DNA of 6,187 nucleotides, taken from a virus. Its lineage: Duplodnaviria > Heunggongvirae > Uroviricota > Caudoviricetes. The position numbers and the translations under genes are program-made. Shown piece by piece: positions 285 to 1,562 of this stretch (the first letter of the stretch is position 1; each line of letters opens with the position of its first letter). Location: positions 1 through 6,187 of IMG/VR virus record IMGVR_UViG_2671181111_000004; one strand, 5' to 3'. The notes under the pieces are model-generated. The model saw only the letters and a program-made list of their open reading frames with translations. It searched no databases and was not told the DNA's origin.

Positions 285-316
285 TCCTTACGCTACGTAC
301 TTCTCGGGGCGCTTAC
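66..316 (+). mobile_element. IS66-family insertion sequence remnant: 3' terminal ~250 bp (tnpC C-terminal codons plus right terminal inverted repeat)
   Basis: The translation from ~66 (RSVAVGRKNYLFFGSDKGGESAAIIYSLLVTCKQNEVEPEDWLREVIEKLNDWPSNQVHELLPWN) matches the conserved C-terminus of IS66-family TnpC transposases. On the minus strand the sequence from 316 reads GTAAGCGCCCCGAGAAG, the GTAA-initiated terminus typical of IS66-family inverted repeats. The inner boundary near 60-66 is inferred from where the TnpC-like frame loses similarity (in-frame stop at 39-41). Confidence 0.6.
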
Positions 317-1562
317 TTCCCAGAGAACCGTTACGTTGTTTCGTGATATTGATTTCTGCGATGCCCCTGGCCTGCGTATCCGGGTTGTACACTTCATCCC
401 TGTAAAGCATCAGAATGATGTCTGCATCCGCCTCTATTTCTCCGGAATTTTTCAGGTCTGAGTTCATGGGACGTTTATTGGGTCTGGACTCCACACCGCG
501 GGAGAGCTGGCTCAGCGCAATCAACGGAAAACCACCGGATTTTGCCAGGCCTTTAAGCCCCTTTGAGATTTCACCCACGGCAAGGTCATGACGCCCCGTG
601 GTTCGGGTTTTTATCAGCCCGAGATAATCAACCACCACCAGCGCCGTTTCCGGATATTTAATCAGGTGGTGTTTCGTTGTTGCGCATATCTCATCAATGG
701 CCAGGTTCGCCTGGTCCACCATCCAGATATTGCGCCCGGTCATCCGCCCCACCCCTTGTGAGAAACGCGTCCAGTCTTCATCTTCAAAGTGAGCCACAGA
801 TTTCAGGCGTGATACTGGCATCCCTCCAGCCGCAGACACCATACGTTCACCAATCTGGATGTTCGCCATCTCCATGGTGAACAGAAGCACACCATGCCCC
901 TGCTCAGTCACCTTGTCGATGATGTCCAGCGCAAGTTCGGTTTTCCCCATCGAAGGACGGGCGGCAATGAATACCAGGTCTCCGGGCTCCATACCGCCTG
1001 TTTTTGCGTCCAGTTCATCAATACCGGTCATCAACGTCCTGGATTTCTCCAGCCCCTGATTCCGGCATTCAACACGCTCAACCACTTCCGGAAGCACATC
1101 ATCAATATGTACCGGCTGAATGACGCCCTTTCCTGTCGACAGTGTGACCATCATGTTCTGCGCATCCTTCAGGGCATCTTCAGCTGCTTCACAGGTATGC
1201 GCATCACGTAATTTCTGCAGCGCCTCATTCAGTGTTTTTTCTGCATCGCGCAGTGCGGCATTGCGCCGCAACGCTGCAACATAGTGCTCCAGTGAAGACT
1301 TCACCCAGGTTTTACGCCCGGTATCAGTAATCACCGGGGCAAGTTCCGGCATCTCATTACACAACAGCACGGGGTCAATCACTCCTGAAACACGGGCCTG
1401 TCTGCAGATGCCTGTATAGATATCCTGATACGCTCGTACAGAAAAAACGTCCGCTGGCAGTGTGGCCAGAATATCCATCACTTCAGGATCTGCTCCGCGC
1501 AGAAAGAACGCGCCGATGACAGCGCCTTCAAGGTCATCGTTACGCCATACTGGAGTTGTCAT
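288..1562 (-). CDS. dnaB: DnaB-family replicative DNA helicase (phage-encoded), C-terminus apparently replaced by IS-derived codons
   Basis: 424-aa ORF with Walker A (AARPSMGKTE) and the DnaB RecA-like C-terminal domain (KQRNGSLG near the end). GAGGTG Shine-Dalgarno 7 nt upstream of ATG at 1562; the start overlaps the loader stop (ATGA). Confidence 0.9.
   Translation of the reverse strand: MTTPVWRNDDLEGAVIGAFFLRGADPEVMDILATLPADVFSVRAYQDIYTGICRQARVSGVIDPVLLCNEMPELAPVITDTGRKTWVKSSLEHYVAALRRNAALRDAEKTLNEALQKLRDAHTCEAAEDALKDAQNMMVTLSTGKGVIQPVHIDDVLPEVVERVECRNQGLEKSRTLMTGIDELDAKTGGMEPGDLVFIAARPSMGKTELALDIIDKVTEQGHGVLLFTMEMANIQIGERMVSAAGGMPVSRLKSVAHFEDEDWTRFSQGVGRMTGRNIWMVDQANLAIDEICATTKHHLIKYPETALVVVDYLGLIKTRTTGRHDLAVGEISKGLKGLAKSGGFPLIALSQLSRGVESRPNKRPMNSDLKNSGEIEADADIILMLYRDEVYNPDTQARGIAEINITKQRNGSLGSKRPEKYVA

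Follow-up and report, generated by a model that had tools for sequence, protein, structure and literature searches.

In a degraded Shigella flexneri lambdoid prophage, the insertion sequence ISSfl3 truncates a DnaB-type replicative helicase gene, and with high confidence we place this truncation at a deletion or rearrangement joint that was hit later by an IS3-family insertion and a frameshift. The stretch of DNA analysed here, which is 6,187 nucleotides long and is called the window below, represents a short-read contig from the heavily degraded prophage. The features on which the argument depends are as follows (window coordinates):

1..66, minus strand: the left end (TGAACCGCCCCGGG...) of an IS3-family element of 1310 bp, with its first codons.
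67..316, plus strand: last 250 bp of ISSfl3, comprising the 3' end of tnpC and the right inverted repeat.
282..284, plus strand: TAA stop codon of the TnpC frame.
288..316, minus strand: IS-derived end of the fusion ORF, made up of the last two bases of Ser416, the codons for KRPEKYVA and the TAA stop at 288-290.
295..316, plus strand: right terminal inverted repeat of ISSfl3.
317..1562, minus strand: what remains of the native prophage gene for the DnaB-family helicase (codons 1-415 and the first base of codon 416).
1559..2446, minus strand: DnaC-like helicase loader gene.
2448..3361, minus strand: replication-module gene, 'LvrA C-terminal domain-related', frameshifted.

The junction can be placed to the base. 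Read directly, the minus strand from 316 to 288 is GTAAGCGCCCCGAGAAGTACGTAGCGTAA, and the minus-strand helicase ORF (288-1562) encodes 424 amino acids with the C-terminus ...ITKQRNGSLGSKRPEKYVA, at which it stops. DNA homology to intact helicase genes starts exactly at window base 317, and base 316 marks the boundary of the IS, such that the native ...GGA ACG ATT... becomes ...GGA A/GT AAG CGC... at the break. Ser416 is consequently specified by a hybrid AGT codon, whose A was part of the native ACG (Thr) codon and whose GT belongs to the IS. With the right end of ISSfl3 lying behind the first base of codon 416, the helicase frame enters the IS terminus, reads (S)KRPEKYVA and halts at TAA. The first-pass annotation had ascribed the final nine helicase residues, SKRPEKYVA, and the stop codon to the IS; their 29 nt do lie inside a 250-bp block identical to ISSfl3, with the refinement that the IS contributes 8 2/3 codons rather than nine, followed by a TAA within the inverted repeat. 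That annotation had also read the transposase and helicase stops as convergent and 3 bp apart, and direct reading agrees: the helicase stop is TTA on the plus strand and TAA on the minus strand, and bases 285-287 separate it from the TnpC stop. All three frames that enter the right end of ISSfl3 close, after 1, 7 or 9 codons, and a short junk tail is thus added to whatever gene this end interrupts; the provision of a stop codon by the IS is incidental and nothing special.

Assignment of the terminus to ISSfl3 rests on full-length identity with known copies. A megablast search against complete E. coli genomes returned matches to window positions 67-316 at up to 100% identity (some alignments extend to 318 or 319 by chance), with ISSfl3 copies identical at 250/250 positions (E about 1e-127 to 1e-131); the name itself derives from the RefSeq label of identical copies, 'IS66-like element ISSfl3 family transposase'. 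A complete reference copy (L003:996-3750) is 2754 bp long and has the genes tnpA, tnpB and tnpC; it starts with GTAAGCGCCCC, ends with GGGGCGCTTAC, and has the same 8 bp, TTTTCAAA, on both sides as a perfect target duplication. The segment in the window terminates in ...CGCTTAC at base 316, and its minus strand from 316 to 306 reads GTAAGCGCCCC, exactly as the complete copy does at its left end (L003:997). When both ends of the reference copy are compared, the outer 11 bp of the inverted repeat (306-316) match the left end perfectly and approximately 16 of 22 positions match overall. Published IS66-family repeats begin GTAAGCGTCCGG..., i.e., GTAAGCG (PMC12888890). The proposal that the GTAAGCG terminus belongs to an IS66-family element is thus upheld by its match both to the ISSfl3 right inverted repeat and to the published repeats.

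Within the window, a 68-residue ORF (78-284) matches the Pfam family DDE_Tnp_IS66_C (PF13817, E = 1.4e-14) and corresponds to only the last ~68 codons of TnpC. What had been called a transposase is therefore only a C-terminal fragment, from an element that is itself split, because the IS3-family element is nested at window position 66/67. The same ISSfl3 copy in a related locus (L010) has TnpA, TnpB and DDE_Tnp_IS66 ORFs, as does the reference copy. The element studied here resembles ISSfl3 of Shigella and E. coli in its 250/250 nucleotides, its terminus, its PF13817 match, and the tnpA-tnpB-tnpC order seen in related loci; it differs in lacking a target-site duplication, and in having its tnpC split by the IS3-family element and, in some strains, by another IS. 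This copy is presumably no longer autonomous. Literature searches on ISSfl3, and on IS66 elements with GTAAGCG, brought up nothing concerning this locus. One alignment, to E. coli O10:H32 (H10), runs to window position 330 and looked like a shared insertion site; it was rejected, as the flanks resemble one another by chance (TTTTCAAGAACCGTT versus TTCCCAGAGAACCGTT) and the context is unrelated.

On the helicase side of the junction, the closest match is a 463-residue 'replicative DNA helicase' encoded next to a DnaC-like ATP-binding protein in a prophage of E. coli O121 (L001:2855-4246). The native part of the window gene is 100% identical to it in both DNA and protein, with residues 1-415 equal and the two sequences divergent afterwards; the best DNA matches, in E. 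coli genomes (H26-H35), are 98.9-100% identical from base 317 onward. The length of 463 residues is that of E. coli prophage helicases (e.g., WP_000211324.1; the O121 copy matches at 415/415 positions) and of L19 of the Stx2e phage phiP27, which has the same tail and agrees at 401 of residues 1-415. The window gene belongs with these DnaB-family phage helicases and, like them, adjoins a DnaC-like loader; it differs in lacking residues 416-463 and in carrying nine unrelated IS-encoded residues instead. The first-pass annotation was right to regard the native C-terminus as missing, since intact homologues are 446-466 residues long and none ends in SKRPEKYVA, but its estimate of about 25 lost residues falls short: 48 native residues (416-463) are gone relative to the intact 463-residue homologue. 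The lower figure is explained by E. coli DnaB, which has 24 residues beyond the equivalent break.

Structural alignment places the break after the position corresponding to Gly447 of E. coli DnaB. Both domains of the E. coli protein (PDB 6BBM, 6QEL and 7T20) align with this helicase (E about 1e-62, residues 12-430); relative to DnaB, it is a phage paralogue whose tail, when intact, is about 30 residues longer, and in the window it ends at the Gly447 equivalent. A homologue search returned 120 cluster representatives, 111 of which are full length with a KQRNG-type motif. Every one of these 111 extends 38-52 residues beyond KQRNG and shares a conserved tail, LGT[IV]YRRFxNGHFxPxDQ...RRY, whereas SKRPEKYVA is absent from all 120 representatives. 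These comparisons bear directly on the idea that the lineage naturally ends in SKRPEKYVA (...GSLGSKRPEKYVA) and that its likeness to an IS is coincidental. The frame is indeed open, and the protein carries the plain public name 'replicative DNA helicase'; nonetheless, with the 29-nt coding tail inside a block 100% identical to ISSfl3 over 250 bp, and with a longer C-terminus common to all full-length relatives, we regard a native short end as exceedingly improbable.

The 48 lost residues include part of the folded core. An AlphaFold model of an intact homologue, with a mean pLDDT of 79 and block means of 88-90 for residues 411-440, predicts the following elements in the affected region:

Residues 412-422: beta-strand, cut after four residues in the truncated protein.
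Residues 425-427: beta-strand, lost.
Residues 431-438: helix, lost.
Residues 444-463: disordered tail, lost.

The truncated product keeps the N-terminal domain (PF00772, E = 2e-5) and most of the RecA-like core, including a Walker A GKT at residues 206-208. Its match to the DnaB C-terminal domain (PF03796, E = 4e-71) covers profile positions 2-241 of 255, set against 247/255 in comparison, and the final beta-strands that follow KQRNG in a complete C-terminal domain are missing; the score against the NCBIfam DnaB equivalog, 303.6 bits, lies below the cut-off of 385. As a separate observation, 111/111 full-length homologues have, beyond the RecA core, a basic tail in which RRY is almost invariant (residues 431-463 of P0001). 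E. coli DnaB lacks this tail, which is predicted to be disordered and might serve as a partner-binding peptide.

Having located one end of ISSfl3, we turn to the other. Six loci from S. flexneri assemblies (L004-L008 and L010) carry the identical junction, among them the chromosome-length, 4.5-Mb records L006, L007 and L008, and the window is 99.98% identical to these loci over positions 1-6123. In them, the left end of ISSfl3 lies 4-5 kb away, a span that reflects the length added by the nested IS3-family element and, in some strains, by further IS elements. Next to this end comes TCCTCAGCCGAAACC..., a flank that starts within the gene for the Rz 'lysis protein', at codon 102 (L013:6001), has DedA and terminase genes after it, and is 99.7-99.8% identical to the lambdoid lysis region of EIEC-like E. 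coli. No 8-bp target duplication is present at the locus (the flanks read TCTGGGAA on one side and TCCTCAGC on the other), and in the S. flexneri loci examined, 10 kb on each side of the gene contain no trace of the remaining 146 nt of helicase sequence. The check proposed at the outset, to find the other IS end together with a target-site duplication, thus succeeded in its first part, in complete S. flexneri genomes, and found no duplication in its second.

These flanks distinguish between two ways in which ISSfl3 could have come to interrupt the helicase. Were the event a simple transposition, the 146-nt remainder would lie just past the other end of the element, next to an 8-bp duplication; IS66-family elements normally generate such duplications, the reference copy L003 has one, and the other end of the element falls outside the window. 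The TTCCCAGA duplication and the remainder expected of a simple insertion are, however, contradicted in the genomes examined: in L004-L008 and L010 the left end is flanked by TCCTCAGC..., from the interior of Rz, and not by TCTGGGAA and the rest of the helicase gene, which leaves simple transposition a very slim chance. The combination of a missing duplication and Rz interior at the left flank indicates that ISSfl3 marks a deletion or rearrangement joint, and its position at such a joint accounts for the lack of a target-site duplication. The event is therefore an IS-associated deletion or rearrangement that joined the helicase to a truncated Rz gene, rather than a simple insertion; the missing duplication is no argument against the element being an IS, and fits IS-associated deletion or recombination.

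A further alternative is a join created during assembly. IS termini lie at both edges of the window, as is typical of short-read contigs, and in one related scaffold (L009) an N does mark an artificial join. The helicase/ISSfl3 junction, though, lies inside the contig rather than at its edge and recurs in the chromosome-length records L006, L007 and L008, and the exact 424-residue fusion protein is found in 442 blocks of public assemblies and is recorded on 391 contigs. A chimeric short-read join at a repeat consequently has next to no probability. An exact-pattern scan for the junction in a collection of one genome per species gave no match; that collection evidently holds no S. flexneri genome with this allele.

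Within the favored explanation, an IS-associated deletion or rearrangement, the joint between helicase codon 416 and Rz codon 102 could have arisen by intramolecular transposition or by recombination between two ISSfl3 copies. Gene order across the region (replication genes, [nin, Q, tRNAs, holin, endolysin, Rz'], 'Rz-DedA-terminase) and orientation accord with an adjacent deletion, some 2.9 kb in length, inside a single lambdoid prophage. If both flanks did come from one prophage, about 2.9 kb would have been lost, a length pieced together from two prophage segments of E. coli O121, and with it the 3' end of the helicase gene, ninH, the antiterminator gene Q, tRNA genes, the holin and endolysin genes, and the 5' part of Rz. 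No single phage record sharing both the helicase and the Rz-DedA flank at high identity was found. In E. coli O121, the nearest E. coli genome, the helicase and Rz-DedA segments lie about 160 kb apart in two separately IS-disrupted prophage pieces; this separation leaves room for recombination between two ISSfl3 copies, and makes the ancestral arrangement, and with it the size and type of the rearrangement, tentative. Both O121 pieces end at IS911 copies (L001:1-845 and L013:7443-8611, ~160 kb apart), which points to a single ancestral prophage that was inverted or split through IS911 in that strain.

A candidate for the missing helicase remainder was encountered in L009 (GCA_900486915.1), where the 3' half of a helicase gene with its native C-terminus seemed to lie shortly past the junction. 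Inspection of L009:9780-11100 shows an internal IS3-family position, a single N, and then the helicase 3' half with native C-terminus, followed by ninH and Q; as the two parts meet through one N and within an IS, the connection was made in scaffolding, and this segment was rejected as a nearby remainder. Some strains, as L009 hints, may carry a second helicase copy, either intact or differently truncated.

Decay at the locus extends beyond the helicase break. After the rearrangement, the IS3-family element would have entered ISSfl3 tnpC, and the upstream replication gene would have acquired its frameshift. Positions 1-66 of the window are 100% identical to this element in L002, L010 and other loci; in L010 it is present at full length (11497-12806), flanked by the 3-bp duplication ACG, and its ORFs match NCBIfam transpos_IS3. 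The 1310-bp element is putatively IS629-like. With its end at window positions 1-66, the contig ends within a repeat. On the other side of the helicase, the stop codon of the DnaC-like loader gene overlaps the helicase start by 4 nt, an arrangement consistent with one operon for the two; the best match of this loader is the NCBIfam DnaC helicase loader, at a score below the curated cut-off, and it also matches Pfam IstB_IS21. The next gene, 'LvrA C-terminal domain-related', encodes 302 residues in its intact relative and has suffered a 1-bp deletion near window position 3025 relative to E. coli O121 (L001:5710), which splits it into ORFs 2448-2678 and 2990-3361. The same deletion is present in the S. 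flexneri loci compared, as judged from gapless alignments, and this frameshifted gene constitutes a second lesion of the replication module. At least four kinds of IS occur in the region (ISSfl3, the IS3-family element, IS911 and IS600), and the prophage is without antiterminator Q and lysis genes.

Against this background, retention of the truncated, IS-tailed helicase for a function, whether as a poison subunit or decoy against incoming related phages or in service with the DnaC-like loader, appears highly unlikely. Such a role would accord with an uninterrupted ORF that keeps most of the ATPase core, with the wide spread of the allele, and with the record of substitutions relative to E. coli O121 (none over 1246 nt of helicase, four in the neighboring loader gene). 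Yet the break removes well-predicted core strands that are conserved in every homologue, the adjoining replication gene is frameshifted, the prophage lacks Q and lysis genes and is riddled by IS elements, and clonal descent by itself predicts sequence identity among strains and may also be all that lies behind an intact, identical ORF on 391 contigs. It is likewise very doubtful that an expressed product would poison incoming phiP27-like or other lambdoid helicases by co-assembly, or titrate DnaC-like loaders; if it did, the truncated helicase would confer superinfection immunity. The loss of core strands, the frameshifted replication gene, the absence of Q and lysis genes, and the presence of at least four kinds of IS instead make it most likely that the fusion ORF is a pseudogene in a dead prophage, its product probably non-functional as a helicase.

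IS-mediated gene truncation and prophage erosion are well known in Shigella. The hallmarks of IS-driven pseudogene formation and prophage decay in this genus are all found here, namely nested IS elements, genes cut at IS ends, IS-flanked deletions, and contigs ending in IS elements, and the locus is one specific instance with no difference in kind. The mechanism is not new, the decay is of an ordinary sort, and the sequence is already public, annotated as an ordinary helicase; no new biological question is opened. The locus nevertheless provides a clean, fully resolved case of IS elements dismantling a Shigella prophage, in which truncation, deletion or rearrangement without target duplication, nested insertion and secondary frameshift are all visible. 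Its practical value lies in annotation: the 424-residue 'replicative DNA helicase [Shigella flexneri]' (UniRef A0A658Z2F7_SHIFL) is most likely the product of a truncated pseudogene, its tail is encoded by the IS, and its database entry should say so.

Several further observations concern the far side of the window. Homology to the E. coli O121 prophage stops at position 4416, and positions 4657-5996 carry a Gp49/HTH_3 (HigB/HigA-like) pair, NinE, NinB and a phiTE_015-like gene. These genes lie upstream of the replication genes on the same strand, an order unusual for a lambdoid phage, and the order beyond 4416 suggests further rearrangement or mosaicism. The last 65 positions, 6123-6187, are the left end of IS911 (TGAAGTGGCACACTGAATTTGG...), 100% identical to IS911 in L013, and the contig ends at 6187 because the IS911 end is there. 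This IS911 is inserted in a gene for a 760-residue Toprim_2 primase-like protein and looks like a strain-specific extra insertion, since the complete S. flexneri genomes L004-L010 have the gene without interruption.
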